A stretch of DNA of 64,000 nucleotides from an uncultured Acidobacteriota bacterium (GCA_963731785.1 CAVSWX010000009.1:49449-113448); one strand, 5' to 3'. Positions 19,854-52,643 are shown, counted from the first letter of the stretch. Notes: generated from the sequence alone by a model not told the origin. Translations and numbers: made by a program.

Positions 19854-19869
19854 TGGCACTCGCTTTGCT
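19854..19869 (+). promoter_or_regulatory. sigma-54 (-24/-12) promoter, perfect consensus
   Basis: TGGCACtcgctTTGCT. The -12 GC lies 104 nt upstream of the ATG at 19972, in non-coding DNA. Confidence 0.7.
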
Positions 19870-19971
19870 CCCCTACCAGAGGCCCCCGCGGGCTATAAAT
19901 GTGCGTGGCCGCAGGTGTTGCGGCGCAGGGGTCGAGCCATCCATCAACGTCCGGGCGAGAGAGAACCCCAG

Positions 19972-22362
19972 ATGCCGATCAGTTCCCCCGTGAAGGTCCG
20001 TGTCGCCACCGTCCTGATCCTCGCGTTCTTCGCCACGCCGCTTGCGCCGCTCGTGGCCCAGGCGCCTGCCACCACCAAACCGGCGCCTGCCACGGCCAAA
20101 CCGGCCACGACCACCGCCAAACCGGCGGCTGCCGCCGCCGCGGCTCCCGCGTCCGACGGCGGGTGGCCGCGAGCGTACACGACGGCGAGCGGAGCGGCCC
20201 TGGCCCTCTACCAGCCACAGGTGTCGAGCTGGGCAGACCAGAAACGGATCGTCGCGTATGCCGCCGTGTCCCACGCGCCGAAGGGTGCGAAGCCGGCCCT
20301 CGGCACCCTCAAGCTGGAATCCGACACCAGCGTCGCCCTCGACCAGCGGCTCGTGAATTTCTCGGAGTTCACGATCACCGAATCCAACTTCCCGACGGTG
20401 CCGCGTGAGCAGGTCAAGACGATCGTCTCGGAAATCACGGCGGCGATACCGCGCGAGGAGCGCGTGATCGCGCTCGATCGGGTGCTGGCCAACATCGACA
20501 CGAGCGCGATCATCCCGAAGAACGTCGAGGGCGTGAAGGCGGATCCGCCGCCGATCTTCTTCAGCAAGACGCCGGCTGTGCTGGTCAACATCGACGGTGA
20601 GCCGATCTGGCAACCGATCCCTCAGAACGACCTGGTTTCGGCGGTCAACACCAACTGGGATCTGTTCCAGCACAATCCGACGAAGACGTTCTACCTGCGC
20701 AACGAGACCGTGTGGCTGAAGGCCACCGACCTGAAGGGACCGTGGACGCCGGCCGGCAAGCTCCCGGAGAGCTTCGCGAAGCTGCCCAACGACGAAAACT
20801 GGAAGGACGTGAAGTCCAGTCTCCCCGGCCGGACGATCAACGCCAACCAGGTGCCGCAGGTGTTCGTCAGCCTGGTGCCGGCGGAGATGATCCTGCTGAA
20901 GGGCGACCCGACCTATCTGGCGGTGCAGGGCGCGAACCCGCTGGTGTGGGTCAGCAACACCGAGAGCGACATCTTCCGCATGGGCGCGACCGGGCCCGTC
21001 TACTTCCTGGTCGCGGGCCGGTGGTTCACGTCACGCGATTTCGCCGGCCCCTGGACGTTCGCCACGTTGAATCTGCCCGAGGCGTTCAAGCAGATTCCGC
21101 TCGAACACGAGCGCTCGCGCGTGCTCGCGTCGGTGCCGGGCACGCGAGAGGCGGCCGAAGCCGTCGTGCTCGCGCAGATTCCGCAGACGGCACGTGTCAG
21201 CAAGACGCTGCAGGCGCCCGAAGTCGTGTACAACGGGACGCCGGAGTTTCAGCCGATCGAGATGACGACCGTCCAGCGTGCGGTCAATACCGACAAGGAC
21301 ATCATCAAGGTCGGCGACCTCTACTACATGTGCTTCCAGGGCGTCTGGTTCATGTCGAAGTCGCCCACTGGCCCATGGCAGGTCACCGGCGAAGTGCCGA
21401 AGCAGATCTACGAGATTCCGGTCAGCTCTCCGGCGCACTCCGTCACCTACATCACGGTCGAGGACGACGACGACGACGAAATCCTCTTCGCGACGGCGCT
21501 GGCGGCCACCGGCGTGATGGTGGCGTGGGGCTGCGCCGTGTGGGGCACCGGCTATTACTACCCGCCGTACTACGGCGGCGGGATGTACTACCCGTTCTAT
21601 CCGACCTACGGGTTCGGCGCCTCCTACAATCCGTGGACCGGCGCCTACACGCGCGGAGCGGTGGCCTACGGTCCGTACGGAGGCGCGGGCGTCGCCCAGC
21701 GCTACAACCCCCGAACCGGCACCTACTCGCGTGCCGCCGTCGCCCACGGCCCGTACGGTTCGCGCGGCGCCGCGTCGGCCTACAACCCGAGGACCGGCAC
21801 GGGCGCCGCAACCCGGCAGGGGTCGAACGTCTACGGGAGCTGGGGCACGACCGGCGTCCGGCGCGGCGACGATTGGGCGGCCACCTCACGCTACACGAGC
21901 AACGTCACCGGCAACACCACGCGCGTCACCCGGACGAGCGACGGCGACGTCTATGCTGGCCGTGACGGCAACGTCTACCGCAAGGACGGCGACGGCGGCT
22001 TGCAGAAGTACGACAACGGCGGCTGGGGCGACGTCGTCGCGACGCCCGAGCAGCGCCAGCAGGCGCAGGATCGGGCGGCGCAATCCGGTGCGCAAACGCG
22101 CGACCGCGCCACGACCTCTCAAATGGATTCGGCGACGCGCACCCAGGTCGATCGCGATGCCGCCGCTCGCGCCGAGGGCGCACAGCGCACGCGCGATTCG
22201 GGCCAGATGCGGAGCGGGAGCGGCAGCACGTCGTCGAGGTCCGGCAGCTACCGCCCCAGCGGTGGCGGGGGCGTCCATCCGGCGGCGGCGGGCGGCGGCG
22301 CTGATCGACGCACGGCCGGCTTGCCCGGAATGTGCGCTCGGAATACTGGAGGTGACGGGTGA
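19972..22362 (+). CDS. large secreted protein of unknown function with Gly/Tyr-rich C-terminal repeats (YNPxTGxYxRxAVAxGPYG x3)
   Basis: Signal MPISSPVKVRVATVLILAFFATPLAPLVAQA, a Thr/Pro/Ala linker and a long conserved-looking body. C-terminal repeats and a Gln/Arg/Ser-rich tail. The last ~20 codons may be frameshifted (alternative stop at 22302-22304). Confidence 0.7.
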   Translation: MPISSPVKVRVATVLILAFFATPLAPLVAQAPATTKPAPATAKPATTTAKPAAAAAAAPASDGGWPRAYTTASGAALALYQPQVSSWADQKRIVAYAAVSHAPKGAKPALGTLKLESDTSVALDQRLVNFSEFTITESNFPTVPREQVKTIVSEITAAIPREERVIALDRVLANIDTSAIIPKNVEGVKADPPPIFFSKTPAVLVNIDGEPIWQPIPQNDLVSAVNTNWDLFQHNPTKTFYLRNETVWLKATDLKGPWTPAGKLPESFAKLPNDENWKDVKSSLPGRTINANQVPQVFVSLVPAEMILLKGDPTYLAVQGANPLVWVSNTESDIFRMGATGPVYFLVAGRWFTSRDFAGPWTFATLNLPEAFKQIPLEHERSRVLASVPGTREAAEAVVLAQIPQTARVSKTLQAPEVVYNGTPEFQPIEMTTVQRAVNTDKDIIKVGDLYYMCFQGVWFMSKSPTGPWQVTGEVPKQIYEIPVSSPAHSVTYITVEDDDDDEILFATALAATGVMVAWGCAVWGTGYYYPPYYGGGMYYPFYPTYGFGASYNPWTGAYTRGAVAYGPYGGAGVAQRYNPRTGTYSRAAVAHGPYGSRGAASAYNPRTGTGAATRQGSNVYGSWGTTGVRRGDDWAATSRYTSNVTGNTTRVTRTSDGDVYAGRDGNVYRKDGDGGLQKYDNGGWGDVVATPEQRQQAQDRAAQSGAQTRDRATTSQMDSATRTQVDRDAAARAEGAQRTRDSGQMRSGSGSTSSRSGSYRPSGGGGVHPAAAGGGADRRTAGLPGMCARNTGGDG

Positions 22363-23164
22363 GAACGACAACGACGACACGGAAACAGCAGCACTCTCCA
22401 TCGCCGCCGCCGCGCGCTGGTCGTACTCGCGGCGATTGCGACCGCAAGCATGGCCGCGGCCGCGTGCTCCGCACCTGAGTCTCAGCCTGCGGCCGAGGCT
22501 CCCGCCGCTGAGGCGGCTGCGCCTGGTGAGCCATCGGCGAGCGCGCCGCCCGCGGAGGAGGCCGCGTCCGGCGCCGCCTGCGCCCGCGGCGCAGCCCGCC
22601 GCCCCGCCCGCGGCCGCTCCACCGCCCGCACCTCCTCCACCACCAAAGCCCAGGGTCGCCACGCTCGGCGCCGGCCAGGTGATCACGATCAGAACCACCC
22701 GCGAGCTCTCGACCAAGACGGTGGAGACCGGAGCGCCGTTTTCGGCGGTTCTGGAAGAGCCGATCAGGTCCGGCGACTGGACCATCGCAGCCGCGGGCGC
22801 CAAGGTCGACGGCCGCGTGGTCGAGGCCGACAAGGGCGGCCGGGTCAAAGGAAAAGCCAGCCTCTCGATCGAGCTCACCGCTCTGACGCTCGCCGATGGC
22901 ACCAAGATCGAGCTCGTCACGTCGCCGATCAGCAACGAGGCCGCGGCGAACAAGGGCAAGAACGCCGCAAAGGTCGGGATTGCCGCAGGCACCGGCGCGG
23001 CGATCGGGGCGATTGCCGGTGGCGGACAAGGCGCGGCGATCGGCGCCGTCGCCGGGGGCGCCGTGGGCACGTTGGCGCGGGGCGAGTCCGCCGAAATTCC
23101 CGCTGAATCGGTCATCGGGTTCGAGCTTCGCTCGCCGGTCACGATCCAGGAACAGAAGCGATAA
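22359..23164 (+). CDS. lipoprotein with a C-terminal glycine-zipper region; about two frame breaks (near 22400 and 22570)
   Basis: GGAGG SD plus a GTG at 22359 overlapping the upstream TGA. Lipoprotein signal RRRRALVVLAAIATASMAAAAC lies in a second frame. The body ..VATLGAGQVITIRTTRELSTK..AAGTGAAIGAIAGGGQGAAIGAVAGGAVG.. lies in the frame of ORF 21731..23164. Confidence 0.55.
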
Positions 23165-23170
23165 CGTGCG

Positions 23171-23212: not shown

Positions 23213-23868
23213 TTACCGGATGACGATCGCGGCGCCCAGCGACCAGAAGTTGGCGATCACGTTCTCGTTGTTCACCCCGCCGCTCACGAAGTCGCCGAGC
23301 GCGGCCATGTGCTGGGCGCCGAACAGCTCAAAGCCCACACGCTTGCTGCGCCAGAACGCCCACCCCGCACCGTAGGTCAGTCCCAGCGCCTTCGACGTGA
23401 TCGGCGGCACCGAATCGGCCGCGTCGAAGGTGAAGTTGCGGACGAAGGCCATCCCCATGCCGCCCCGCAGAAAGAAGCCGTTGGACGCCATCGGCCTGAA
23501 TTGCCCCGTGGCCAGGAGAAAGGTCACACGGATGTCATCGCCGGCTGGGTCGAGGCCGGGACCCACGACACTTCGAGCCCCGCGTCCGCCTGAGGGTTCA
23601 CGCGGACGCCGGCGACCGCGAGCACGCTCCCGGTATGCAGGTAGGCGCCGGTGCCGTGCGCGGGACAGCCTTCCTGACAATCGCCTCGCAGGGTCGTCGT
23701 CGTGCCGCCGACGACGATCCACGTGCGAGATCGATCGGCCGCGGACGCGGTGTCGGCGGCCGGCTGCGCCGCCGACGGGGACGCCGATGAGGATGCCTGC
23801 GCGCCGGCCGGAACAGGCGTGAGGCACGCCAGCGCGACCAGGCCGGCCGCGAGCCCACGCAGGCTCAT
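23213..23868 (-). CDS. small outer-membrane beta-barrel protein; frame break near 23550
   Basis: Signal MSLRGLAAGLVALACLTPVPAGAQA. The C-terminal half (..FGAQHMAALGDFVSGGVNNENVIANFWSLGAAIVIR) is in ORF 23213..23827. The ATG overlaps the upstream stop (ATGA), with GGAGG SD. Confidence 0.65.
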
Positions 23869-25460
23869 GAGAACCTCCATGTCATAAACAGGCGCACCTG
23901 GGGAAAGTGGAATTTCTGTGTCGGGTTGGCGGTCTGGGAAAAGTAGGTCCGGCGATCGAAGTACTCGCCGGCGAACCCGACGCCCAGCGGTCCTTTCAAC
24001 GGTACCAGCAGGTCCAGCCGCAATTGCTGCAGGAAGTGGTTGGCCCTCACGCCGTCGAGGCTGTAGAGGTGATGCGTCTCGTACAGGAAATCGACGATCG
24101 GGCGGCCATCGTTCGCCAGGATGGCGCGGGCGCCAAAATCGGTCCCCGGGCCGTAGTCGTAACAGCGCGGGCCCTCCGATACACCCTGGCCCGCCCCGTC
24201 GCCGTCCGGCGGCGTCTCTGGTGCGCACACGTCGTCACCCTCGAGCGGAATCGAATCGACGGCGCCGAGCGCGGTCAGACCGCCCCACCCGTTGACCCAG
24301 AACGAGAGACCGTCGGACAGGCTGCCGAACGTAACGGCCACGTTCCCATTGAACGCCTGCGCGCCGAACTGGTAGACGTTGTTCTTGGCGAAGTCGTACG
24401 CCTGCGTCACGTTGAACTGGATGCGGTTGTTGTGAAAGGGCTGGCCGATGAGGCGGCCTCGTACCTTCGCTTCACTCAGGCCGCCGCCGCCGCCGAAGCG
24501 AAGCAGCACGGTGAAGTCGTCGTACGGCGTCCGGCTGCGGCCGACCCTGGGATCGCCATACAGCATGTTCATCTCGAGAAAGGCGTTGTTATCCCCCTCG
24601 AACGCGTTGGTGTTCGAGCCTCGCGAGAGCACGCCGAGCGAGCCGATGGCCTGGAGCGCCGACGGGACCATCTCCGGCGGCTTCTCGGAGATGCGGGAGG
24701 CGTCACCGGACAGGAACCGCTTGAGGCCCGTGATCGGATCGATGGCCATGGCCCCGACCTCCTTCCACAGGCGGGGCTTTCCGGTAAGGCGCGGGTCGCG
24801 CACGAGCCAGGCGGCGCGATGGAACATCTCGCCGAGCGCAATGCCGCCGAGCGTCGTGTTGATCAGGTCGTTCACCGAGGCATGGTTGGTTTCGCCGTAG
24901 TACTCCCACGTGGCGCTCCCAAATGCCGTGATGCCCGCCGATTCCCAGAAGCTCAGGCCGTTGGCTCGCCCGGCGTTGAAGTAGTTGTTGCCCTGGTACG
25001 GGTGCCCGATCTGGTTGACCCCAAAGTCGTCGAGGTCCCACACCCACCCCTGCTCCATGTTGGCCCACCACGACTTCGGGGTAATGTGCGCCGTCACCTG
25101 GCCGCGCGCGAGATTGGCGAGCTCATAGAAGACGTTGACGATCGTCGTGTCGAAGAAGGCGCGGCCCACGCTCCGCGGGGGGCAGCCGTCGCAGGCGCGG
25201 CGCTCCACCGAGAGCACGGTCGGGGCTGCCGGGGCTTGGCCGCCCGCCGCCTCGGGGGCCCCACCGGCGAAATCGAAGGCGAACAGCGTTCGCGCCCCCG
25301 CGGACACCGCTTCGCTGGGCCACAGCGGCGGCTGCTCTTCGCTGGGCCACGCCGGCGGCTGTTCGGCCGGCACGGCAAGTGCGGTCTGAGCGCTCGCCGG
25401 GCGAGCCGTCGCCGCGACAGCCAGGCAGGCCAGGAAAAGGAACACGGGAGACCGGACCAT
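23865..25460 (-). CDS. DUF3943-like outer-membrane protein
   Basis: Signal MVRSPVFLFLACLAVAATARPASAQ. Conserved stretch NQIGHPYQGNNYFNAGRANG. C-terminal beta-signal-like ...VRLFMTWRFS. Family assignment is from memory of the motif. Confidence 0.6.
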   Translation of the reverse strand: MVRSPVFLFLACLAVAATARPASAQTALAVPAEQPPAWPSEEQPPLWPSEAVSAGARTLFAFDFAGGAPEAAGGQAPAAPTVLSVERRACDGCPPRSVGRAFFDTTIVNVFYELANLARGQVTAHITPKSWWANMEQGWVWDLDDFGVNQIGHPYQGNNYFNAGRANGLSFWESAGITAFGSATWEYYGETNHASVNDLINTTLGGIALGEMFHRAAWLVRDPRLTGKPRLWKEVGAMAIDPITGLKRFLSGDASRISEKPPEMVPSALQAIGSLGVLSRGSNTNAFEGDNNAFLEMNMLYGDPRVGRSRTPYDDFTVLLRFGGGGGLSEAKVRGRLIGQPFHNNRIQFNVTQAYDFAKNNVYQFGAQAFNGNVAVTFGSLSDGLSFWVNGWGGLTALGAVDSIPLEGDDVCAPETPPDGDGAGQGVSEGPRCYDYGPGTDFGARAILANDGRPIVDFLYETHHLYSLDGVRANHFLQQLRLDLLVPLKGPLGVGFAGEYFDRRTYFSQTANPTQKFHFPQVRLFMTWRFS

Positions 25461-25628
25461 GAGACAGCTCTCTCCTTTTCGCGACTCGCTCCAGCGAGCC
25501 GTCACCCTATGGCGGACAAATCACCGCCGGTTGTGACCTTCCGATCGGTACTCCGTCGTTTGCGGGCACGAACGGGGGCCTGGTCCCGTGTTCGTAGCAA
25601 ATCTGTGACCGTCTCGCCGGCAGCCCGG

Positions 25629-25644
25629 CGGCCCGATCGTTGCT
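25629..25644 (+). promoter_or_regulatory. weaker sigma-54-like element upstream of the GH63-like gene
   Basis: cGGCCCgatcgTTGCT has correct GG-N10-GC spacing. It lies 35 nt before the GTG at 25678, with GACGGAGG SD. Confidence 0.3.
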
Positions 25645-25677: not shown

Positions 25678-28411
25678 GTGAGCGCGAGACCAGACGTCGT
25701 CGAGCAGAAGCGGTTGAACGACGCACGGGAGGCGGGGGTGCCCTGGAAGAAATGGGGGCCGTACCTCAGCGAGCGGCAGTGGGGCACCGTTCGCGAAGAC
25801 TACAGCGACAACGGCGACGCGTGGAACTACTTCACCCACGATCAGGCGCGGTCGCGCGCTTACCGGTGGGGCGAGGACGGACTCGGGGGCCTGTCCGACG
25901 ACAAGCAGCAACTGTGCTTCGCCCTGGCGTTGTGGAACGAGCGGGACCCGATCCTGAAAGAGCGCCTGTTCGGGCTCACGAACAACGAGGCGAACCACGG
26001 CGAAGACGTGAAGGAGTACTACTTCTACGTCGACAGCACGCCCACGCACTCGTACATGAAGTATCTGTACAAGTACCCGCAGCGGGAGTATCCCTACCGG
26101 GACCTGGTCGACACGAACCGGAACCGATCGCGGAACGAGCTCGAATACGAGCTGCTCGATACCGGCGTCTTCGACGAGGACCGCTATTTCGACGTGTTCG
26201 TGGAATACGCGAAGGCCGGCCCGGAGGATGTGCTCGTCCGCATCACGGTGCACAATCGCGGGCCGGAAGCGGCCAGGCTGCGCGTCCTGCCGACGCTCTG
26301 GTTCCGCAATACCTGGTCGTGGGACGCGGATCAGCCCAGGCCCTCGCTCCGCGAGGTGCGACCCGGCGTCATTCAGGCCACGCATCCCCAGCTGGGCGAG
26401 TACTGGCTGTCGTGCGATGGCGCACCGGAGCTGCTCTTCACCGAGAACGAGAGCAACGCATCGCTGCTCTGGGATCAGCCCAACCCGTCTCCCTACGTGA
26501 AGGACGCGTTCCATGAGTACGTCGTCGGGGGCCGCCACGACGCGGTCAACCCCGCGAAGGTCGGGACCAAGGCGGCGGCCCATTACGCCCTCGACGTGCC
26601 CGCTGGCGGCAGCAAGACCGTCAGTCTGCGCCTCGAGAGCGCGGCGGCTGCGAAGGCCGTCAACGACGCCGCGACCGGCGATGCCTTCCGCGGGTTCGAG
26701 CGGATCCTCGAGAGCCGCATCGCGGATGCGGACGAGTTCTACGAGCGGATCGCGCCGCAGTCGCTGAACGACGACGAGCGGCGCGTGCACCGCCAGGCGC
26801 TGGCGGGCATGCTCTGGAGCAAGCAGTACCTACTACTTCGACCTCGAGCGCTGGCTGCGCGACCAGAAGAGCCATCCGCTGGTCGATGCCCCCCGGTCCG
26901 GCGTGCGGAACCGCGAGTGGTTTCACATGCTCAACGCCGACGTGATCTCCATGCCGGACAAGTGGGAGTACCCGTGGTACGCGGCGTGGGACCTCGCCTT
27001 TCACACCCTCTCGCTGGCGCTGGTGGATTTCGACTTCGCCAAGGAGCAGCTGCTGCTGATGCTGCGGAGCCTCTATGCCCATCCCAACGGGCAGATCCCG
27101 GCCTACGAGTGGAACTTCAGCGACGTCAATCCGCCCGTGCACGCCTGGGCGACGCTGCGCCTGTACAAGATGGAACGGAACCTCGGGCGGGCAGACCTCC
27201 GTTTCCTGGAACGGTCGTTTCACGGCCTGATGCTGAACTTCAACTGGTGGGTGAACCGGAAGGATCCGGCGGGACGCAACGTGTTCGCCGGCGGGTTTCT
27301 CGGGCTCGACAACATCGGCGTGTTCGACCGCAGCGCGCCGCTGCCGACGGGCGGCTCGCTGGAGCAGGCGGACGGGACGGCGTGGATGGCGTTCTACTGC
27401 CAGAACATGCTCGAGATCGCCCTCATCCTGGCCGAGCCGACGACACCTACGACGAGGCCGCCTTCAAGTTCGTCCAGCACTTCATGTGGATCGCCTACGC
27501 GATGGACCGCCGGGGCGAGAATCACGACGAGATGTGGGACGAGCAGGACGGGTTCTTCTACGACCTGCTGCGGTTGCCCGACGGGCAGGCGATGCGCCTG
27601 AAGATCCGGTCGATGGTGGGACTGTTGCCGCTGTGCGCCTCGACGGTGCTGGACGCCGGCGTCGGACAGCGGCACCCGAAGCTGATGGAGATGGTCGCCC
27701 AGTTCCGCGACCGCCATCCCGAGCTGCTGGAGCAGGTCGCTCCGACCGACGAGGGGTTCGTCGGCTACAAGGGACGGCGGCTGCTCTCGATTCTCAACAA
27801 GCGCAAATTGGAGCGGGTGCTCGCCTACCTGCTCGACGAGAACGAGTTCCTCGGGCCGCACGGCATCCGCGCGCTGTCGCGCCACCATCTCGACCATCCG
27901 TTCGTGTTTCACGTCGGTGGTCAGGAGCTCAAGGTCCAGTACCTGCCCGGCGAGTCGGATACCGGCATGTTCGGCGGCAACTCCAACTGGCGGGGTCCGG
28001 TGTGGATGCCGGTCAACGTGCTCCTGATCCGCGCGCTCTTGAACCTCTACATGTTCTACGGGACCGAATTCACGGTGGAATGTCCGACCGGGTCCGGGCA
28101 GCACATGACCCTGTTCGAGGTGGCCAAGGAGATCTCACGCCGGCTGGCGAGCACGTTCCTGCGTGACGCGAACGGCCGGCGGCCGGTCTACGGAGGCACG
28201 GCGAAGTTCCAGGAGGATCCGCACTGGCGCGATCTGATCCTCTTCTACGAATACTTTCACGGCGACAACGGCGCCGGGCTCGGCGCCAGCCATCAGACGG
28301 GGTGGAGCGGGACGGTGGCGACCCTCCTCGACCTGTTCGGGCGCGTCGAGGCCAAGGATGTGGAGCTCGAAGGCGATCGAGATCGCCGCGGCCCTGCTGA
28401 CGCGGAAGTAG
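25678..28411 (+). CDS. GH63-like glucosidase ((alpha/alpha)6-barrel glycoside hydrolase); three frame breaks (near 26830, 27437, 28370)
   Basis: [42 protein letters not shown]. The middle part ([31 protein letters not shown]..) is in ORF 26903..27601. It returns to the first frame at ..[11 protein letters not shown]... A plausible true tail [13 protein letters not shown] ends at 28411. Confidence 0.75.
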
Positions 28412-28429
28412 GTCACGGCTTCCGCGCGC

Positions 28430-30029: not shown

Positions 30030-30110
30030 GGTTCGACCAGCCTGAGAGCCAGCGATGGCTTCCCTTCCGACCGGACGCATGGCGACGGCCACTCACGATG
30101 AGCGGAGTCG

Positions 30111-31056: not shown

Positions 31057-31072
31057 CGCAAAACCAGCGCCA
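31057..31072 (-). promoter_or_regulatory. sigma-54-type promoter upstream of ppk2 (and mscS)
   Basis: The minus strand reads TGGCGCtggttTTGCG. The -12 GC is 44 nt from the ATG at 31014, with an AGGAG SD in between. Confidence 0.55.
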
Positions 31073-31420
31073 CCTCACGGCCCAGCGGCCTCGGCCCGGA
31101 GGCATGCCTTTGGCGAGGTTTCGACACACCGCTTGATCGGCGGGGCCGGCGGTCACCACATGTTGTGAGGGCGTCTCGACAGGCCAGAAGCAGCGTGCGG
31201 ATCGCGAACCAGGCCCAAGGATCCGGACGGCGCGTCAGGTTCTGGCCGGGTCCGGGTCTTGCACTTTGCCCGGTCCGACGACACCCATGATGGCCATGAT
31301 CATGCTGCGCGCATGCTGGCTCATCCAGCGGAGACAGCGAGCCCCGATCTGCGAATCGTGCTCTTCAACTCTGCCCCGGCGGGGCCATGGACGGGGCAAT
31401 CACAATCAAAAGGAGAACGC

Positions 31421-33279: not shown

Positions 33280-33466
33280 CGGTCACGCCGTCCCCTGGCC
33301 GCCGGCCTCCCATGGCCGTGCGGCATCCTACCGCCGTCCCCCGGGTCTGCACGCAACGTGTTGAGACTCACTAACGGCAGATGGTGACCTGTCGCGGCGC
33401 CGGCGGGCTGCCAGGCGGTTTCACGGCAAATGGCCTTGAGAATCGCCGGTTTCCCAACGCCTGACG

Positions 33467-33482
33467 TGGCTTGCGTATTGCG
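33467..33482 (+). promoter_or_regulatory. sigma-54-type promoter upstream of the STAS gene
   Basis: TGGCTTgcgtaTTGCG. The -12 GC is 36 nt from the ATG at 33517. Confidence 0.5.
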
Positions 33483-36820: not shown

Positions 36821-36984
36821 TGGCTCCCCGGAGCTGTACCGTGGAAGGTAGCACGAGCCTGCACCAGAAGGGACATCAATTGCCAGGTGAGCCCCTCGCT
36901 CACAGCCGGCCGTCACTGGTCGGCGGCGGCCAATGGAGTTCCGCCAGGTTTCACCCAATTCTCGCGGTCGATTCGCCGCCGGAC

Positions 36985-37000
36985 TGGCAGAGTACTTGCC
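36985..37000 (+). promoter_or_regulatory. sigma-54-type promoter immediately upstream of DUF4136 copy 1
   Basis: TGGCAGagtacTTGCC. The -12 GC is only 15 nt from the ATG at 37014, which implies a near-leaderless mRNA. A GGAG SD-like motif sits inside the promoter, which argues for caution. Confidence 0.4.
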
Positions 37001-39607: not shown

Positions 39608-39738
39608 CCCGCGGCGGCGGTCGCCGGACCTGCTCACAGCATCCCGTGACCCTCCGGGATGGCCGGGCGGCCGGCGGTGGAGCCTCGGCGATTCCTTCGC
39701 GTTTTCAGCCATACTGGCGACCCGCGTGGCAGACCAAC

Positions 39739-39754
39739 TGGCCCGCTCCTTGCC
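39739..39754 (+). promoter_or_regulatory. sigma-54-type promoter upstream of the lipocalin-like/family X operon
   Basis: TGGCCCgctccTTGCC. The -12 GC is 40 nt from the ATG at 39793. Confidence 0.5.
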
Positions 39755-41665: not shown

Positions 41666-41681
41666 GGCAAGGAGCACGCCA
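41666..41681 (-). promoter_or_regulatory. sigma-54-type promoter upstream of the secreted-protein gene 40922..41651
   Basis: The minus strand reads TGGCGTgctccTTGCC. The -12 GC is 16 nt from the ATG at 41651 (near-leaderless geometry). Confidence 0.4.
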
Positions 41682-41919
41682 ACGAAAGCTCGCAGGATCC
41701 CTCAACAGATGGTCCTGACAGACATCGACTTCACGAGGGGCGGTCAAAACAGTGACCGAGCGTGGGAAGACGAAGAGAGGGCCTCGCCTCCAACCTGGTG
41801 CCGCCAGACTCTGGCGAGCAGGGCGGCGGGATCGTCCACGCTCACGGCGGGCTGTCAGTCGCGTTTGCCGAGGGTGTTGAAAGACCGGGATCATGACGCA
41901 AGAGCGCTCCGTGGCAACG

Positions 41920-41935
41920 TGGCGAACGGCTTGCA
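41920..41935 (+). promoter_or_regulatory. sigma-54-type promoter upstream of the DUF3604-PpiC-HupE operon
   Basis: TGGCGAacggcTTGCA. The -12 GC is 47 nt from the ATG at 41981. Confidence 0.55.
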
Positions 41936-41980
41936 GCCGCCGATGTTGATGCTGAGACAGCAAGGGAAGGTGGGGTGCCC

Positions 41981-43966: not shown

Positions 43967-43972
43967 GAGGCC

Positions 43973-44818
43973 ATGCGTATGCGACGGCTTCTCGGCGAGC
44001 CGATGCTGCACTTCGTGCTGATCGGCATCGCGCTGTTCGCCGCCTATCAATGGAGGGCGCCCGTCGATTCCGACGGGCGCCGCATCGTCGTCACCCAGGG
44101 GGTGGTGGACGACCTCGTCACACAGCACGCGGCGGCGAAAGGGCGCGAACCCTCGGCTACCGAGCTGAACCACTTGATCGAGTTGTACGTACGCGATGAG
44201 ATCCTGTACCGGGAAGGTGTGAAGCTCGGACTCGATCGTGACGACCTCGTCGTCAAGCGCCGAGTCCGCCAGAAGATCGAGCTGATCGCGGAGGAAGAGG
44301 CCTCGACACAGGCGCCGACCGACGCGGATCTGTCTGCGTACCTGGCGGCGAACCAGGGGCGCTTCGTGCAGCCGGCCATCCTCACCTTCGAGCAGGTGTT
44401 CCTCGGACAATCGACATCCGGCCCTGGAGTGGTGCGTGCGGTCGCGGTCACGCATCAGGCCCTGCGGAACGGTCGCGACCCCGCGACACTCGGCACGCCA
44501 ACGCTGCTGCCGTCTCGGATGACCCACACCGCTGCCGACCTGATCGCACGCGATTTTGGCGACTCCTTTGCCGCCGCTCTCGAGACGATGCCGATCGGCG
44601 AATGGGCCGGGCCGATCGATTCGAGCTTCGGGGCCCACTACGTGCGCGTCTCGGATCGCACTTCGGCCGTGGTGCCGCAGCTCGACGCGGTACGCGAGCA
44701 GGTCGCGCGCGAATGGGAGAGCGAGCGCCGCCAGCGCGCGCGTACCGACTCCTACGCCAGGATGCGCGAAGATTACGAGGTCAGCAGTGAAGCCACGATG
44801 CCGAAGGAGCAGAGGTGA
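43973..44818 (+). CDS. membrane-anchored PpiC/parvulin-type peptidyl-prolyl isomerase-like protein
   Basis: N-terminal TM LHFVLIGIALFAAYQW. ..EILYREGVKLGLDRDDLVVKRRVRQK.. and ..GEWAGPIDSSFGAHYVRV... It starts 7 nt after the DUF3604 stop. Confidence 0.6.
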   Translation: MRMRRLLGEPMLHFVLIGIALFAAYQWRAPVDSDGRRIVVTQGVVDDLVTQHAAAKGREPSATELNHLIELYVRDEILYREGVKLGLDRDDLVVKRRVRQKIELIAEEEASTQAPTDADLSAYLAANQGRFVQPAILTFEQVFLGQSTSGPGVVRAVAVTHQALRNGRDPATLGTPTLLPSRMTHTAADLIARDFGDSFAAALETMPIGEWAGPIDSSFGAHYVRVSDRTSAVVPQLDAVREQVAREWESERRQRARTDSYARMREDYEVSSEATMPKEQR

Positions 44819-45823: not shown

Positions 45824-45904
45824 CCGGCGTGCGGAGGCGCGGACCCGTGTCCGCCGCTGATTCGCTGATACCCCGCGCGTGAGTTCGCCGCGCCCGTGTT
45901 CCCG

Positions 45905-46519: not shown

Positions 46520-46536
46520 CGGCGCACCCGCGGTCG

Positions 46537-47175
46537 TCAGGGCTGGCGCCGGGCGAGTCCCTGCTTCTGCATCTCTTCGACCGACGCCGTCGCCAACTCC
46601 TCGACGAACGCGCGGATGTCGCGCGGGTTCGTCGTCTCGGTGACCGCCGCCCACAGCAGCTGGTTCCGCGGCACGCTGTAGACGGTGCTCTCGACGACGA
46701 CGGTCCTCTGTGTCCGCTGCCCGCCGCTGCCCGGCACCCACACGGCGGTCCACCCGTAGCCGTAGTAGCCCCAGAGCGTGCCGTAGTTCGGACTGACCCA
46801 CACGCTCGGCGAGTACTGCTGCTCCGTCTCGGCGCTGACCGGCCGCACCACGACCACGCCTTCCACGTTCGCCTTTTCGAACCACGGCCTGGCGGTCTCG
46901 GCGCTGCGCAGCTCTTCTTTCGGCGCCATCCGGTAGGTCGCCACGGCCTGCATGCCCCTCGCGCCGAGCGCGCGGGCGAGCGCCTCTTCGCCCGCCATCC
47001 GCAGCGAGTCGTCGTTGGAAATGACCAGAGCGGCCACCTTCTTCCCAAAAAAGTTCGCCGCCCCTGCATCCAGCGACTTGAAGGTCGAAGTGAACCTGAT
47101 CGCGGCCGGCAGTCCCGCGACCAGGGTTACGATGATTGCGGCGGTCGTGCACGCCGTGCCCACAGTGCGGTGCAT
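46537..47175 (-). CDS. membrane-anchored/secreted protein of unknown function
   Basis: AAGGGAAGGGGA SD before the ATG at 47175 (MHRTVGTACTTAAIIVTLVAGLPAA). The body has GVVVVRPVS..GYYGYGW..VVVESTVYSV..LLWAAVTETTNP. Confidence 0.55.
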   Translation of the reverse strand: MHRTVGTACTTAAIIVTLVAGLPAAIRFTSTFKSLDAGAANFFGKKVAALVISNDDSLRMAGEEALARALGARGMQAVATYRMAPKEELRSAETARPWFEKANVEGVVVVRPVSAETEQQYSPSVWVSPNYGTLWGYYGYGWTAVWVPGSGGQRTQRTVVVESTVYSVPRNQLLWAAVTETTNPRDIRAFVEELATASVEEMQKQGLARRQP

Positions 47176-47229
47176 GTATCCCCTTCCCTTCTTCATTCGT
47201 GCCGGCCGCCGAATCGCGGCCCGCGCGGG

Positions 47230-48571
47230 TTACGCGGCCGCCGACGGCGCCGCCGTCGAGGCCGTCAGGGCCTTGTAGTGACGCCCGATGCGCCACGCCA
47301 GGATCAGTGTGACGAGCGCGAGCGCCGCGTTGACTGCCGCGAAGCCTCGCGTCGGCAGCGCGAGGAATGTCGTGCCGGTGAAGACGAGGGCGGCCGAGAG
47401 CACGTCACCCATGCGGACGAAGAACGAGTCGATCGCCTGCTTGGCCGCGAACTTCTGTTCGTAGCTGCACGGCAGGAACAACATGTTGCGCACCGTGTTG
47501 TTCAGCGAGTAGTCCGCCGAATTCTCCATCACTTTGGCCACCAGCGCCGCATTCAGCAGCGGCACGAAGATGAGGACGTTGTAGACGCCGAACGACAGGG
47601 CCGGGAGGATCAGCAGCGCCACCGCCACGCCGCGGTGCTTGATGATGCGTGACACCACGAACAGCTGCAGGAGGAGGCCGAGGGCGTTGGCCAGGGAGAA
47701 ATACTTGGCGTAGAAGTCGCCGATGATCTGGGCCTCGCTCAGTCCCGGCGCGGTTTGCGGCCGCAACCGCCGCCTCCGCGTGTTCCTTGACGATGCCACC
47801 GAGGATGTACTCGCCGGTGGTGTTGATCCAGTTGATCATCAGGAGCATCAAGGCCATCAGCAGCAGGTACCGGGTCCCGAGCACCATCGTGAACGGGTTC
47901 ACGCGCGGCGCGGCGCTTGCCTGCTTCACGTGCACGGCGCCCGGCCGCCGGCCGCGCTCGACGCGGTCGATGTAGTTGGTCAGCAGCAACTGGAGGCCGA
48001 GCACCGCGGCGCCGAGCAGCATCAGCTGATTCACGCCGAACGGCTCGATCAGGCGATCGGCCACGCGCGCGCCCGCCACCGCGCCCAGCGACGCGCCGAG
48101 GCCGACCAGGACGAGCAGCCGTTCACCCTCCTCCTTCGAATACACGTCGTTGGCGAACGACCAGAACTGCGCGACGATCATCAGGTTGAAGATGCCGATC
48201 CACACGAAGAAGATCACCCCGAGCGGCACGCCGACCCGGGCCAGGAGATAGAACACGACCGGGCAGACGACGAAGAAGGCCGTGACGACATTGATCAACG
48301 TCATCCGCGGGAGCCTGGACACGAGGCGTCCGTAGGCGGGAACCGCGAAGGCCAGCAGCACGACCTGGCCCGCGGACAGGTAGCTCTTGAGCTCCGCGGT
48401 CCCCTCCGCGAGGATCAGCGCCTCGCGCACGGTCTTCAGGATGTAGTACGACATCAGGATCAGGAAGACGTTCGTGCCGAGCAGCAGCGCGGTGCGGGCC
48501 TCACCGGGGCGGACGACGGTGAACAGGTTGAGGAACCGTTCGAGTCCGGAGGCGCGAGTTGCGTCGCTCAT
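47230..48571 (-). CDS. TLC/Npt-type (ADP/ATP-translocase-like) nucleotide-transporter family protein; frame break near 47750
   Basis: FLNLFTVVRPGEARTALLLGTNVFLILMSYYILKTVREALIL..AQFWSFANDVYSKEEGERL.. in ORF 47405..48571. The C-terminal TMs (..ENSADYSLNNTVRNMLFLP..AKQAIDSFFVRMGD..) are in ORF 47230..47799. Family assignment is from motif memory. Confidence 0.65.
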
Positions 48572-48574
48572 GCG

Positions 48575-50718
48575 TCACTCCACCCAGTGCAGGACGTTGC
48601 GCAGGATCGACCAGCGCGGCCGGCGCGGCGCCGCGTCCTGTCCGAGAATCCAATGCGCGTAGGCGGCGTCGATCGTGCCGTCCTTGCGCTTCAACGCGAT
48701 CCAGGTGTTGACGAACGCCGCCAGGGCCGGATCGTGTTTGGCGATCGGATACGCAAGCGGTACCCGGATCGGCGCCGGGGCGGGCACGACGACCGAGTAC
48801 GCCGGGTGCATCAGCGTCCAGGCGGATCCACGCTCGGCGGGCAGCGCCAGCGCGTCGGCGTGAGGGGCGGCGCGGTCGAACAGTTGCTCGATGCCGCCCT
48901 CGTGCACCTGGATCGTGGCCCGCGGCAACAGCTCGCGGAGCCTGCGCACGTAGTAGGGCACGTCGGACACGGCGATCGTCGAGTGCGCCCTGCTCGCGGA
49001 TCGCGTCCCAGCTCGCAAACCGTTCGCGCTGGTCGTCCGGCACGACGAACGCCATGGTTTCGTCCAGATACGACTCCGAGAACAGGACCTCGCGGCGCGC
49101 GATCCGTGGTGATCACCACGCCCGACATCACGAGGTCGCAGTACCCCTCCGCGAGCTGGGCTGCCATGCGCTCGCGGTCCACCGGCACGAAGTCGAGGGC
49201 GACGTCCATCTCGCGCGCCAGGCGATGTGCGAGCTCGACGTCGAAGCCCACCAGATCGCCGCTCTGGTTGAAGAACGCGAACGGCAGCGCGTCGGGCAGG
49301 TAGCCGACCCGCAGCACCCGGCGCGCCGCAATGGTCTCGAGCGGCGGGAGGTTCGTCACCGGGGCCGGAGACGGGCTGCGCGCGACGGTGGCGTCGACCG
49401 GTTCGTTGAGCAGGTGCATCGACGCGAGGACGCGATCCTTCGAATATTCCGGCGACAGGCCCGACCCGAAGAGCACTCGTGTGGAGCCGATGACCAGCAC
49501 GGCCAGGGCCATGGTGACGCCGGCATAGCGGAGCACCGATGCACGGCGCCAGCGCAGATGTCCGGTGACCGCGCAGGAGACGAGCAGCGCCACCGTGAGC
49601 GTATGGACCGCCGCGACCAGCGAGCCGACGCGCGAGTTGATCACGCCGGTGGCGAGAAACAGCTGAAACGTATCGGCGGGAATCCGGAACTCGTCGAGGA
49701 GAAACGGCACCGCCGCGGTGAGACTGCCGAAGAAGGTCACCAACCCGGTGAGCGCCAGTTCCGGATAGCTCGACGGCGCGACCGGCACATCGGCAAACCA
49801 TCCCGCAAAGAGCACGAAGCTGAGAGAGAGCAGCTTTCCCGTGTGCGGAAAGTTGAAGGACGCGGGCACGATGACCTCGGTCAGCCGGCCCGGCTCCGCG
49901 TCGCCGGGGCGAAGCCGGCCCAGGATCGTCTGGCTCGCCTGCATCAGGCTCGGGAGCACGATGAAGAGGTCGCCGGCGATGCACGCGGTGATGAGCGGGT
50001 CGCGCGACGCGCCGAGCATGTCCCTGGCTCGAATCGGGGTGAGGGCGCCGACCAGCCCGGGAAGCACCCAGAGACTCACCAGCAGGGCCACCGCGACATA
50101 GGCCACCAGGTAAATCTGCAGTCGGCTCAACTGCTCCAGGCTCAGGGTTCCGGCCGCGTTGGCGGCGATCGCAAACAGTCCATACGGCGTCAGGCGGGTG
50201 ACGGCGCGGGTCGCCGCCGCGATCGCGTCCTTCGCGACCTTCAGGACGTCGAGCAACCGCTCCCGCCGTTCGACGCCGACCAGCGCGATGCCCAGGAACA
50301 GCGAGAAGAGCACCACCGCCGGCACCACGTTGTTCGCCAGCGAATAGAACGGATTCGCCGGAATGTAGAGGCCGATGAAGTCGAACGCGGGCCGTTGCTC
50401 CAGGAGGCTCGAACTGAAGAACGAGGCGTTCTGGACCGACGGGAAGGTCAGGGGGATCAGGAACGCGAAGGCCAGCGCCAGGATCCACAGGCCGCCAATC
50501 ACGGCCGCCGCCGTCGCGCCGAGCCCCCGGAGTTCGGACCGGCGCAGGGATCCGAGGCTGGCGACGATCGAGACGGTGATGTAGGGCAGCACCATCATCT
50601 GGAGCAGCTTCACGAACCCGTCGGCCGCCCATTCCAGCGCCGCCGCCTTCTCGCCGAGGAACAGCCCGGTGAGGGTGCCAAGCGCGAGCCCGGCGATGAT
50701 CTGCGTGGTGAAGGCCAT
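48575..50718 (-). CDS. dicarboxylate/amino-acid:cation symporter (DAACS) fused to a C-terminal family-3 solute-binding-protein domain; two frame breaks (near 49095 and 48978)
   Basis: Transporter core MAFTTQIIAGLALG..LQMMVLPYITVSIV..NFPHTGKL... Then VLRVGYLPDALPFAFFNQSGDLVGFDVELAHRLAREMDVALDFVPV..DLVMSGVVIT.. and ..IAVSDVPYY..LAYPIAKHDPALAAFVNTWIALKRKDGTID.. in two further frames. Confidence 0.75.
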
Positions 50719-50762
50719 GCCGCTGCCTCACGGCATGACGTCACGCCGACCGCGGAACGCGA

Positions 50763-51353
50763 TTATTTCTCGAGCCGCACGTCGGTCAGCCGCACCGGCT
50801 CGATCCCGTAGTTCTCGAGCTCGATCGACTGCTTGTCGCTGCTGAGCGCGATCCTGGCATGGAGCGACATCTTCCCCACGCCAACGCCCTGCGGGTCGAA
50901 GCGGATCTCGATCAGCGTGAACGGGTATTCGAGCCTCCGGGATCCGCTGGCTTCTTCCTCGAAGCCGATCGGACGGTCGGTCGCCAGCAGCACGCGGCGT
51001 CCGCCGTCCGGCAGTGACGACGCGAAGGCGTAGCGCAGATCCAACGCCAGCGTGTTCGGCAGGCGGATGAACCCGACCTTCGGGCTGTTCTCCAGCGCCT
51101 GCAGCAGCTGCGCCTGGCCCCTGGTTCTGAATGCGGTGACGAGTTTCTCCCGCTCTCTCGCGCTCGACCATCGCTCGATGTTGACGAACACGTGTCCGGC
51201 GACAGAAGGGCCACTGCCCATGTTGACGGCAGTGGCACTGTAGCGCTCCGGCGCGCCCGTGGCCTGCGCGCCGGCCCGCGACGACATCCCGTCGGCCACG
51301 ATCACGGCGCACACCAAAATCATCGCGGTTCGACAGAACCATCGGGCGCGCAC
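50763..51353 (-). CDS. secreted protein of unknown function, 'family X' copy 2 (paralogue of 40332..40916)
   Basis: Signal MRARWFCRTAMILVCAVIVADGMSSRAGAQA. See the shared pattern listed at 40332. Confidence 0.6.
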   Translation of the reverse strand: MRARWFCRTAMILVCAVIVADGMSSRAGAQATGAPERYSATAVNMGSGPSVAGHVFVNIERWSSAREREKLVTAFRTRGQAQLLQALENSPKVGFIRLPNTLALDLRYAFASSLPDGGRRVLLATDRPIGFEEEASGSRRLEYPFTLIEIRFDPQGVGVGKMSLHARIALSSDKQSIELENYGIEPVRLTDVRLEK

Positions 51354-51366
51354 CGCCGGCCTCGTC

Positions 51367-51909
51367 TCACGCCTTCGGCTTGGGTGGGAAGTCCTTGAGA
51401 ATCTTCTTCACCGCCGAGGCGATGTTCTTGTCGCGTTTCTCGGCCTTGGCCTGGACGTCCACTTCCTTGACGCCCATGCCGCGCCACACGATCGCCTTCT
51501 TGGACGCTTCGGCGATGTCGACGACCAGTGTGCCGACGAGGATTTCGTTGACGCGCACATCGGTCGTGCCCCAGCCGCCTCCCCACCCGTAGCCGTACGG
51601 GCCGTAGCCGCCGTAGCCGGAGCTGAACGTGGTGATGTCCTGCTTCTTGTCGAACGCAATGTGATAGACCACGACCACGTCGGGCATGGCGTCGTTTTTC
51701 GACAAGCCCTTGGCCACCATCTCGGCTTCGATCGCGGCGACGATCCGGTTGTGCACCAGCGGATCGTTGACCTTCGTGCCGTCCTTGAGGGTGTAGGTCT
51801 TGAACTTCGAGAAGTCCGTCGTCTTGTCGAAGTCGAAGCTGGTTTTCTGCGCCAGCGCAAGCGTCGGCGCCAGGAGCACGATTGCTGCGGCGGTCAGGAG
51901 AGCTTTCAT
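51367..51909 (-). CDS. DUF4136-like secreted protein (copy 2)
   Basis: Signal MKALLTAAAIVLLAPTLALAQ. FSKFKTYTL..PDVVVVYH..GYGGYGPYGYGWGGGW..GTLVVDIAEASKKAIVWRG. It is the C-terminal 180 codons of ORF 51367..52644. Confidence 0.7.
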   Translation of the reverse strand: MKALLTAAAIVLLAPTLALAQKTSFDFDKTTDFSKFKTYTLKDGTKVNDPLVHNRIVAAIEAEMVAKGLSKNDAMPDVVVVYHIAFDKKQDITTFSSGYGGYGPYGYGWGGGWGTTDVRVNEILVGTLVVDIAEASKKAIVWRGMGVKEVDVQAKAEKRDKNIASAVKKILKDFPPKPKA

Positions 51910-51920
51910 GATGGCCTCAT

Positions 51921-52599
51921 TCAGAAACGGAACCCGAACGTGAGTGGATAGTAGGTGCCGTTGGCACTCCCGGAGCGCTCTTCGGCGCCGTCGGGCAGCA
52001 GTCGAGCTGTCGAACTCCGGTCCCCACACGTGGTGGAACCGCGACTCGACGAAGAACTCCGCCGTCTCGCCGATGCCAAACCCGACGCCGGCGCCGATAT
52101 TGAAGCCAAAGTCCCAGCCACCGCGCGAGCCGACGACGCCCTCGATCGGGTAGGTGCCGCACACATACCAGTACGGGTCACAGATGACACCGTTGCCGAG
52201 GTACTCCGTGATCTCCACGCTCCGGTAGTACATGCCCGGTCCGGCCAGCACATACGGACGGATCGTGGCGCCGGTGGGTGCGAAGCTCCCGATCCAGTTG
52301 AAGTCCAGCTGGTGCGTAGTGTGATTCGCCGAGAAGCGCGTCGCGCCAAAAAACGGCGCGTCGTCCTTGATGTCGAACCAGCGGTAGGCGTACTCGAACT
52401 GAAACGCTGCAAAGCGGCTCATGTCGAAGGTGACGCCGATGGCCGGACCCCAGCCGTTCCCGAAATGATCGCCGAGATCGCCCGCGTTGAACGTCGGGCC
52501 GCCGCCGATGTTCACATGCACCGTCTTCTGGGCGCTGCTGGGCGACGCCGTCAGCACCAGCAGCAGAGCCCCAAGAGCCACGTAACTCCCGATTCGCAT
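51921..52599 (-). CDS. small outer-membrane beta-barrel protein; frame break near 52005
   Basis: AGGAGG SD. Signal MRIGSYVALGALLLVLTASPSSAQ. The true C-terminus ..GTYYPLTFGFRF* (aromatic OM signature) is in ORF 51921..52412. Loss of that stop fuses it to the next gene in the ORF track. Confidence 0.7.
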
Positions 52600-52627
52600 G
52601 ATTTCAGATCCTCCTGGCATCCAGGGG

Positions 52628-52643
52628 AGCAAGAGGCAGGCCA
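52628..52643 (-). promoter_or_regulatory. sigma-54-type promoter upstream of the OM barrel-DUF4136-family X operon
   Basis: The minus strand reads TGGCCTgcctcTTGCT. The -12 GC is 30 nt from the ATG at 52599, with an AGGAG SD in between. Confidence 0.55.

Follow-up and report, generated by a model that had tools for sequence, protein, structure and literature searches.

The promoters of sigma-54 RNA polymerase are known from types such as NtrC/glnAp2, NifA/nifH and PspF/pspA, in which a gene-oriented box with a GG and a GC doublet 10 bp apart (the “-24/-12” box) is combined with a palindrome that lies about 80-150 bp upstream of the transcription start and with an AAA+ activator that has a GAFTGA-type loop and a Fis-type helix-turn-helix (HTH). 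The same arrangement is found in a 64,000-nucleotide (nt) stretch of DNA, referred to here in its entirety as the window, from the genome of an uncultured member of the Vicinamibacteria (Acidobacteriota; G+C content 67%). The window probably contains the regulon island of one activator, comprising about 11 candidate sigma-54 promoters at about 19.8-52.9 kb, each with a GG-N10-GC box and a palindrome. The island differs from the described types in its box consensus, which is TGGCsyGsgTCTTGCs rather than TGGCACG-N4-TTGCW, in the abutment of about one third of its promoters on the start codon, and in its targets, which are envelope genes and genes without assigned function rather than nitrogen, formate or phage-shock genes. 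The GAF-AAA+-HTH layout of its activator is that of NifA, NorR and FhlA, which are the best NCBIfam matches, none of them at the family cut-off.

Two more general descriptions are also relevant. The view of sigma-54 as a controller of the bacterial exterior (Francke et al. 2011, PMC3162934) agrees with the targets seen here, which are outer-membrane, lipoprotein, secreted and transport proteins. All three Acidobacteria analysed in that work encode rpoN together with 6-23 activators, but it does not cover the Vicinamibacteria and defines neither the regulon nor the enhancer, whereas a single activator's island is delimited here. Computational reconstructions of activator regulons, such as the sigma-54 regulome of Desulfovibrio vulgaris (PMC4641369), follow a similar organization, in which an activator gene lies beside its targets and a -24/-12 box is accompanied by a shared conserved palindrome; the present case involves another phylum, another motif and far more promoters for one activator (about 11 in 33 kb). 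Our search of the literature on sigma-54 in Acidobacteria and Vicinamibacteria found nothing directly relevant beyond Francke et al. 2011, and no paper on Vicinamibacteria promoters. The Vicinamibacteria are abundant in soil and have hardly been studied.

The comparisons below use three further samples of DNA. Fifty-one related loci (L001-L051; about 848-850 kb of Vicinamibacteria DNA) are centred on relatives of a DUF3604 protein encoded in the window, almost all of which come from soil metagenome-assembled genomes of Vicinamibacteria/Acidobacteriota. Seven loci (L052-L058; 151 kb) are centred on orthologues of the activator (70-79% identity), and one locus (L059) represents a close strain that is 97.7% identical to the window. 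Gene calls were ready-made for the seven activator-centred loci; those for the window and for L001-L051 are crude calls based on codon bias, which cover 69% of the DNA. Protein families in the window were assigned by Pfam and NCBIfam scans.

The box, the palindrome and the activator

A sequence-only reading of the window had listed eight sites matching TGGC-N7-TTGC (“strict” boxes), interpreted them as sigma-54 promoters, and estimated that only a few matches would be expected by chance. All eight are present with the positions and strands that it reported, and the estimate holds: the window contains 9 exact matches compared to 2.06 expected (standard deviation 1.43, maximum 7), and none of 100 dinucleotide-preserving shuffles of the window gave 9. 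The strict boxes of the window all fall within 19.8-52.7 kb, with none before or after this interval. The additional match, at 44557..44572 (+), lies inside the PpiC coding sequence with no palindrome near it and was rejected as a promoter; it recurs in orthologues because it encodes the conserved residues G..FA.

The length of the spacer between the two tetramers is specific. In the window DNA outside gene calls a spacer (k) of 7 gave 7 matches, compared to 0-2 for each of the other lengths in the range 2-13; the remaining site, at 52643, was counted as coding in this control because the gene call began too far upstream. In the non-coding DNA of about 848 kb of related loci the counts were 42 at k=7 and 8-19 at other spacers, and coding DNA showed only a small excess (33 matches versus about 24). 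The comparison of intergenic with coding density which the earlier reading had proposed for the whole genome locates the enrichment in non-coding DNA, within the window and these relatives. Boxes lying upstream of a called gene start and co-oriented with it numbered 36 at k=7, versus 1-5 across k=4-10. The eight sites of the window are likewise intergenic and aimed at the adjacent gene, as had been described, and the distance to the start codon, first given as 15-104 nt, is 13-102 nt when counted from the last base of the 16-nt box. At orthologous genes whose flanks have diverged, six of these eight boxes are kept.

The second motif is a 16-bp palindrome, TCAC-N8-GTGA (fuller consensus gCTCACrGCATGCyGTGAGc), which came to light on reading the regions upstream of the boxes and was subsequently counted as an exact pattern. 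To our knowledge it is not the enhancer of any characterised activator. The exact pattern occurs 4 times in the window, where 1.22 occurrences are expected, and all four lie 68-92 nt 5' of a box, if the weak box at 25629 is included. A symmetrised position weight matrix (PWM) adds palindromes at 33372, 36900, 41842 and 52763, and a palindrome is then found 48-160 nt upstream of all eight boxes and of three weaker ones (25629, 31248 and 52827), which gives about 11 promoters; three of the palindromes (31153, 41842 and 52763) are situated between divergent promoter pairs. Among the related loci L001-L051, a box lies 41-92 nt downstream of 14 of the 18 exact non-coding palindromes, and the enrichment of non-coding palindromes is seen at spacer 8 alone (18 matches versus 2-9 for other spacers). 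A palindrome scoring at least 11 bits lies upstream of 23 of 48 non-coding strict boxes and in none of the 48 downstream windows of equal size; the PWM was trained on box-adjacent sites, so that its counts, as opposed to those of the exact palindrome, are partly circular.

The distances between palindrome and box are also ordered. They cluster near 48, 59, 69, 80, 91 and 102 nt, with about 80 or 91 nt the commonest, and have a period of 10.3-11 bp (Rayleigh R=0.385, p about 0.001, n=47); these distances were compiled by hand, and both the phasing and the box-to-start gap statistics include orthologous promoters, which are not independent. An unbiased test of 6-mer enrichment upstream of the boxes gave only a borderline result, the best 6-mer being TCACGG (p=2e-5 before correction). 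A GTTTC(A)C motif 30-45 nt 5' of some boxes was considered and rejected, as it was not significant in this 6-mer test.

The activator is a GAF-AAA+-HTH_8 protein (33954-35576, minus strand) of the sigma-54-dependent, enhancer-binding kind. Its AAA+ domain matches PF00158 over positions 1-168 of 168 (E=8.4e-70), and GAF and HTH_8 domains are also present. The predicted sigma-54 contact loop (window 34700-34720, residues ~294-299) reads GSFTGA in the window and in relatives that are 92-100% identical, and GAFTGA in more distant orthologues; the F and T of the loop are retained throughout. The earlier statement that the window encodes a single sigma-54 activator is borne out by a tblastn search with the AAA+ core, which returned one match, and by Pfam. 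Hundreds of orthologues with 70-93% identity are found in soil metagenomes. Upstream of the activator gene, and in the same direction, are two receiver-domain genes, a REC-only gene (35607-36023, minus) and a REC-GerE gene (36179-36820, minus), and a PAS histidine kinase is encoded nearby. The REC-GerE/REC/activator module recurs in the seven orthologue loci with minor variation and with the small STAS gene adjoining the activator. The exceptions are a missing call for one receiver gene in L055 and L057 and, for STAS, L054, where the gene was not observed, and L053 and L057, where it is absent or wrongly called. The C-terminus of the REC-GerE gene is frameshifted in the window, at about 36200-36300, and the gene is intact in the close strain, where other genes are split.

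The targets and motifs recur together with this module. DUF4136, Omp85, MscS, PPK2, GH63 and DUF3604-PpiC-HupE are recurring families across the seven loci, as are SDF-SBP, TLC/MFS, Patatin, Phenol_MetA_deg and Gly-zipper. The 151 kb of these loci contain 28 strict boxes, compared to about 5 expected, and 18 non-coding palindromes, at least 16 of which have a sigma-54-like box 20-200 nt away. In the L054/L037 lineage the palindrome is changed to TTAC-N8-GTAA and the activator HTH reads GAAAERLG rather than GN(T/A)AERLG, with the recognition helix of the neighbouring GerE regulator unchanged. This co-variation is suggestive of a link between the palindrome and the HTH of the activator, although it represents a single evolutionary event.

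A coherent mechanism would follow the described sigma-54 systems. RNA polymerase containing sigma-54 would sit on the box as a closed complex, and a hexameric AAA+ activator bound to the palindrome would loop over and open the complex with ATP. This role falls most probably to the GAF/AAA+/HTH_8 protein described above, which would be transcribed with the two receiver-domain proteins. A single enhancer motif is shared, so one activator could serve many promoters, and one signal sensed by the module would then switch on a set of envelope and ion/osmolyte-related units together. These units would include DUF4136 lipoproteins, Omp85-like and beta-barrel outer-membrane proteins, DUF3604-PpiC-HupE, MscS with PPK2, the GH63/MGH1-like protein, transporters, secreted proteins and the STAS protein. 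Reading the motif list in this way turns it into a testable regulon with a single activator, a common enhancer motif and about 11 promoters, and provides a shared context for families that have no assigned function, such as DUF4136, DUF3604 and the unnamed secreted proteins.

Alternative explanations and contrary evidence

The sequence-only reading had proposed that RpoN drives an unusually large envelope regulon in this organism. The part of that proposal which identifies the boxes as sigma-54 promoters is upheld by the specificity of the spacer, the restriction to non-coding DNA, the orientation, the conserved footprints, the phased palindrome and the activator; the part which extrapolates to a large genome-wide regulon is not, as the density of boxes is local to a conserved island around one activator gene. 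The boxes could still belong to a very large genome-wide RpoN regulon in which many activators take part, with sigma-54 acting as a near-general factor for envelope genes. Strict boxes without a palindrome are in fact found beyond chance in the related loci (25 of 48 non-coding boxes, compared to about 13 expected from other spacers), Acidobacteria can have 20 or more activators, and six further activator paralogues occur in the roughly 850 kb of DUF3604-centred loci (L003, L010, L019, L023, L036 and L047), although these were rejected as equivalents of the window's activator on the grounds that their HTH helices differ. We nevertheless consider such a regulon unlikely as the explanation of the window. 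The strict boxes are confined to the interval given above and nearly all have one enhancer motif, a like density recurs specifically around the orthologues of this activator, and the excess of strict sites in the DUF3604-centred loci, themselves an island-biased sample, is only about 1 per 30 kb. If the density reflects the island of one activator, then the puzzle of many promoters and one activator is removed.

The boxes could also be genuine sigma-54 boxes while another regulator, for instance the REC-GerE protein, occupies the palindrome and the activator binds elsewhere or acts from solution. Inverted repeats of about this size are recognised by regulators of the GerE/LuxR type, and the linkage of REC-GerE to the motifs is close to that of the activator, since L059 and all but one of the seven activator-centred loci have a call for the gene. 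This explanation is improbable, more so than the large regulon, because sigma-54 needs an AAA+ activator and the one encoded here keeps its own HTH_8 domain, because the palindrome lies about 90-130 bp before the predicted start and is helically phased in the manner of activator sites, and because the change from TCAC to TTAC, single event though it is, follows the HTH of the activator and not the GerE helix.

Still less probable is the proposal that the box is not a promoter element at all and is instead an operator made of a direct repeat (TGGC/TTGC, with an 11-bp period) and recognised, at sigma-70-type promoters, by a dimeric regulator of the OmpR/PhoB or another type. The two similar tetramers one helical turn apart, the response regulators encoded nearby and the deviation of the boxes from canonical TGGCAC would all be accommodated by it, but the gaps of 11-14 nt that separate some boxes from their start codons leave no space for a start site preceded by a -10 element, the motif always points toward a gene and is accompanied by a phased palindrome at a distance, and the island encodes a sigma-54 activator. 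The TTGC of the box was rejected as a sigma-70 -35 element as well, the start codons being too close and no -10 element being seen at the right distance in the downstream sequences, which were inspected and not scanned systematically. Chance or base composition in GC-rich intergenic DNA may be dismissed: although the genome has 67% G+C and the pattern only 8 fixed bases, the shuffles do not reach the observed count, neighbouring spacers are not enriched, the boxes are kept at orthologues, and the palindrome is found on the upstream side alone.

Several observations weigh against the preferred reading of a one-activator sigma-54 island, in addition to the circularity and non-independence described above. 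The box consensus departs from the textbook TGGCAC-N5-TTGCW at positions 5-6 and 16: in 37 enhancer-linked boxes, A occurs at position 5 in 4 and W at position 16, which is mostly C or G, in 11, and in three promoters the -24 element is CGGC or GGT. The departure from the full sigma-54 consensus could be lineage-specific, and the G at position 7, found in 20 of the 37, does agree with TGGCACG-N4-TTGCW. Six-frame translation of the window and of L001-L051 (912 kb) gave no match to the RpoN box RRT[VIL][AST]KYR, so that the presumed presence of rpoN in this genome rests on data at the level of the phylum and on activators that keep the GAFTGA-type loop. The assignment of the palindrome to the activator would rest on gene linkage and on the one co-variation event. 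The palindrome at 41842 is the weakest of the set (11.1 bits), and an orphan palindrome of 14 bits, TCACGGCATGACGTCA (50728-50743), has no box; it is found in a 44-nt gap between co-directional genes, 8 nt before the SDF-SBP ATG (50718, minus). Finally, no box is present at homologues of the 796-amino-acid protein in L022, L023 and L036 or at homologues of the 39793 protein in L007 and L009, the genes being inside operons in these loci.

Individual promoters and their genes

The products of the downstream genes are largely signal-peptide, outer-membrane or membrane proteins according to the family scans, in agreement with the earlier description of them as mostly secreted or outer-membrane proteins. 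Envelope-type targets include DUF4136, Omp85-like and beta-barrel outer-membrane proteins, the DUF3604 lipoprotein with PpiC and HupE, MscS and transporters. The presence of stress-related families, namely MscS, PPK2, a mannosylglycerate-hydrolase-like GH63 protein, outer-membrane proteins and, in the window and L058, a Gly-zipper protein, along with Na+/H+ antiporters and an aquaporin in related islands, hints at a response to osmotic, desiccation or envelope stress. The conservation in related genomes which the earlier reading had suggested examining is seen for the boxes at ppk2, STAS, the 41651 protein, DUF3604 and the OMP-DUF4136 (outer-membrane protein) fusion, as detailed below.

The first promoter follows genes for a TetR protein (17850-18515, minus) and a short-chain dehydrogenase (18686-19693, plus). 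Its palindrome, TCACGGCATGCTGTGA (19770..19785), is an exact TCAC-N8-GTGA with a PWM score of 26.4 and lies 68 nt 5' of the box TGGCACTCGCTTTGCT (19854..19869, plus), which in turn is 102 nt before the ATG at 19972 of the 796-amino-acid signal-peptide protein (19972-22362, plus; no family match); a Gly-zipper gene comes after it (22679-23164, plus). A TATAAAT at 19893-19901, between box and gene start, may, in DNA of 67% G+C, represent a further -10 element of the sigma-70 type. Beyond a DUF3943 gene (23865-25445, minus), the palindrome TCACCGCCGGTTGTGA (25521..25536) lies 92 nt 5' of the weaker box CGGCCCGATCGTTGCT (25629..25644, plus), which is 33 nt before the GTG at 25678 of the GH63/MGH1-like glycoside hydrolase gene (25678-28527, plus), preceded by a GGAGG ribosome-binding site. 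The GH63/MGH1-like gene of L052 has a palindrome and a CGGC-type box.

The palindrome TCACCACATGTTGTGA (31153..31168), found in identical form in L022, is common to two divergent promoters. On the minus strand the box TGGCGCTGGTTTTGCG (31057..31072) is 42 nt before the GTG at 31014 of ppk2 (30111-31014, minus; frame change at ~30880-30900), which is followed by mscS (28413-30092, minus). This box is kept at ppk2 in L022 and L009, with start-codon distances of 42, 12 and 35 nt in the window, L022 and L009 respectively; box and palindrome occur together at ppk2 in L022, L009 and L053 and at mscS in L052. On the plus strand the variant box GGGTCCGGGTCTTGCA (31248..31263), which has GGT for GGC, is 79 nt from the palindrome and precedes genes for an unassigned signal-peptide protein (31422-31981, plus) and an Omp85/POTRA protein (31987-33279, plus). 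It is similar to the box at 52827 and is backed solely by the adjacent palindrome. The ~150-nt leader 3' of this box contains a 45-codon open reading frame (31287-31424; MMAMIMLRACW...) whose stop codon shares bases with the start codon of the following gene (ATGA) and which may be either an upstream open reading frame or a product of chance.

At the STAS gene (33496-33801, plus) the variant palindrome TAACGGCAGATGGTGA (33372..33387), which is the exact palindrome TCACGGCCGGCCGTGA in the L012 orthologue, is 79 nt 5' of the box TGGCTTGCGTATTGCG (33467..33482, plus), located 13 nt before the GTG at 33496 and kept in L012 and six further genomes. The signal-peptide DUF4136 gene (37014-37523, plus) has the variant palindrome TCACAGCCGGCCGTCA (36900..36915) 69 nt 5' of the box TGGCAGAGTACTTGCC (36985..37000, plus), 13 nt before the ATG at 37014, and distant DUF4136 homologues in L009 and L052 also have a palindrome plus a box. 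Four weaker candidates had been suggested as extensions of the set, and three of them (25629 and those listed as 31249 and 52828) share the upstream palindrome; the fourth, at 37663 (TGGCACGCGAGCCGCG), has CCGC at -12 and no palindrome nearby, and is left unsupported. It is followed by the PAS-HisKA_3 kinase gene (37744-39607, plus), which changes frame at 38735-38826. The palindrome TCACAGCATCCCGTGA (39634..39649) lies 89 nt 5' of the box TGGCCCGCTCCTTGCC (39739..39754, plus), which is 38 nt before the ATG at 39793 of the first of two genes for signal-peptide proteins without family match (39793-40320 and 40317-40916, plus). A 181-amino-acid gene of L052, which may or may not be homologous, has a palindrome and a box with a gap of 12 nt.

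The weak palindrome TCACGGCGGGCTGTCA (41842..41857) lies between two divergent boxes. The box TGGCGTGCTCCTTGCC (41666..41681, minus) is 14 nt before the ATG at 41651 of a further signal-peptide protein gene without family match (40922-41651, minus; frame change at ~41500). It is kept in L041 with the same 14-nt gap, a flank identity of 79% and substitutions in the spacer, and there an exact palindrome is present 59 nt 5' of it. The box TGGCGAACGGCTTGCA (41920..41935, plus) is 39-45 nt before the operon that encodes the DUF3604 lipoprotein (41975-43966), PpiC (43973-44818) and HupE (44815-45882), all on the plus strand. A box is found upstream of DUF3604 in about 10 related loci, with a palindrome in L009, L024, L031 and L023.

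The 5-kb block 40895-45900, which comprises the 41651 secreted-protein gene, the DUF3604-PpiC-HupE operon, the divergent promoters and the shared palindrome, is absent from L059, where about 60 nt stand in its place, and the synteny of L001 breaks at the same left boundary (~40904). It looks like a strain-variable cassette inside the island. In other loci the DUF3604 gene has a highly conserved 5' leader of about 70 nt (CCCGTACTCGGTTCAACCTTAACGATCGTGCACGATGCGATTTCGTCGGCGAAGACATGAGGAAGGTG; L002:9920-10000, L003, L004, L020, L021, L028, L043 and L045), which is conserved even in two loci without a box and which might be a cis-regulatory RNA; the leader in the window is different and shorter. An Rfam scan of the window matched 0 families. 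Near-identical DUF3604 operons are also found on contigs labelled Actinomycetota, Gammaproteobacteria, Acidimicrobiia or Gemmatimonadaceae (L001, L018, L027, L030 and L035). Given the 71-98% protein identity to Acidobacteriota loci, these labels may reflect mis-binning, mislabelling or gene transfer.

The last divergent pair shares the variant palindrome TGACAACATACCGTGA (52763..52778). The box TGGCCTGCCTCTTGCT (52628..52643, minus) is 28 nt before the ATG at 52599, which has an AGGAGG ribosome-binding site and begins an OMP_b-brl-DUF4136 fusion gene (51367-52599), the first of a six-gene block (45905-52599, minus); five to six more genes in the same direction come after it as far as 45905, namely an unassigned gene, an SDF-SBP transporter, a TLC/MFS transporter and two more unassigned genes. 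This box is kept in L001, and in L022 a split pair of OMP and DUF4136 genes has a box with a 13-nt gap. The GGT-type variant box CGGTCCCCGTCTTGCA (52827..52842, plus) is 48 nt from the palindrome and 12 nt before the ATG at 52855 of an Omp85-like gene, followed on the plus strand by an unassigned gene (54039-55700), DUF4136 (55703-56296) and PP2C (56305-57177).

A frame change is also seen in TLC/MFS (47405-47799). The frameshifts of the window probably do not mark pseudogenes and stem instead from indel errors in a long-read metagenome assembly. At 10200-14000, outside the island, the frame plot of third-position GC changes frame every few hundred bases and few open reading frames can be called, which could reflect many frameshifts, short genes or unusual DNA.

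Short box-to-start gaps

The transcription start of a sigma-54 promoter with its GC doublet at -12 is expected at the 10th or 11th nucleotide after the 16-nt box. A start codon 11-14 nt after the box therefore predicts a leader of 1-4 nt, so that the four short-gap genes of the window (STAS and DUF4136 with 13 nt, the 41651 protein with 14 nt and the Omp85-like gene at 52855 with 12 nt) would be effectively “leaderless”. Gaps of 11-14 nt are found at no fewer than nine gene families, which include ppk2 in L022 and SulP in L056, and in the seven activator-centred loci, for which gene calls were ready-made, the gaps are 11, 12, 12, 12, 12 and 13 nt, followed by values of 18-74 nt. The STAS gene has a gap of 12-13 nt in 8 genomes, in which the bases between box and start codon are not conserved and include no Shine-Dalgarno sequence, and its N-terminus is conserved as (V/M)(D/E)C(W/R)I. 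In a second class of promoters the box and the start codon are 28-102 nt apart, and a Shine-Dalgarno sequence precedes the latter.

Leaderless transcripts, defined as those with a leader of 5 nt or less (PMC12754779), have been described in Deinococcus-Thermus, where a sigma-70-type -10 element lies next to the open reading frame (PMC12340547). The present case resembles these in the fixed short distance between promoter element and start codon and in the lack of a Shine-Dalgarno sequence, but here the adjacent element is a putative sigma-54 -12 box rather than a -10 hexamer. A full-text search of the literature returned no description of leaderless transcripts driven by sigma-54, which does not prove that none exists. 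As a tentative generalization, which we put forward with less confidence than the one-activator island itself and below even chances, sigma-54 boxes in Vicinamibacteria may be routinely fused to start codons to produce leaderless mRNAs, with one GAF-type activator co-ordinating a portable island of a dozen envelope/osmolyte units by means of the previously undescribed TCAC-N8-GTGA. If this is true, these would be, as far as the searches show, the first described class of sigma-54-dependent leaderless transcripts, and if the short-gap promoters do yield such transcripts, then sigma-54 control and leaderless translation can be combined, which lies outside the standard picture of either.

Leaderless expression of the ordinary sigma-70 kind may be common in the same genomes. 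Among the genes at the heads of transcription units in L052-L058, a Shine-Dalgarno-like sequence precedes 34 of 83 and is lacking in the other 49, and a TANNNT peak is present at -12/-13 from the start codon (7 of the 83 genes, compared to about 0.3 per other position), which suggests that such expression is frequent in Vicinamibacteria.

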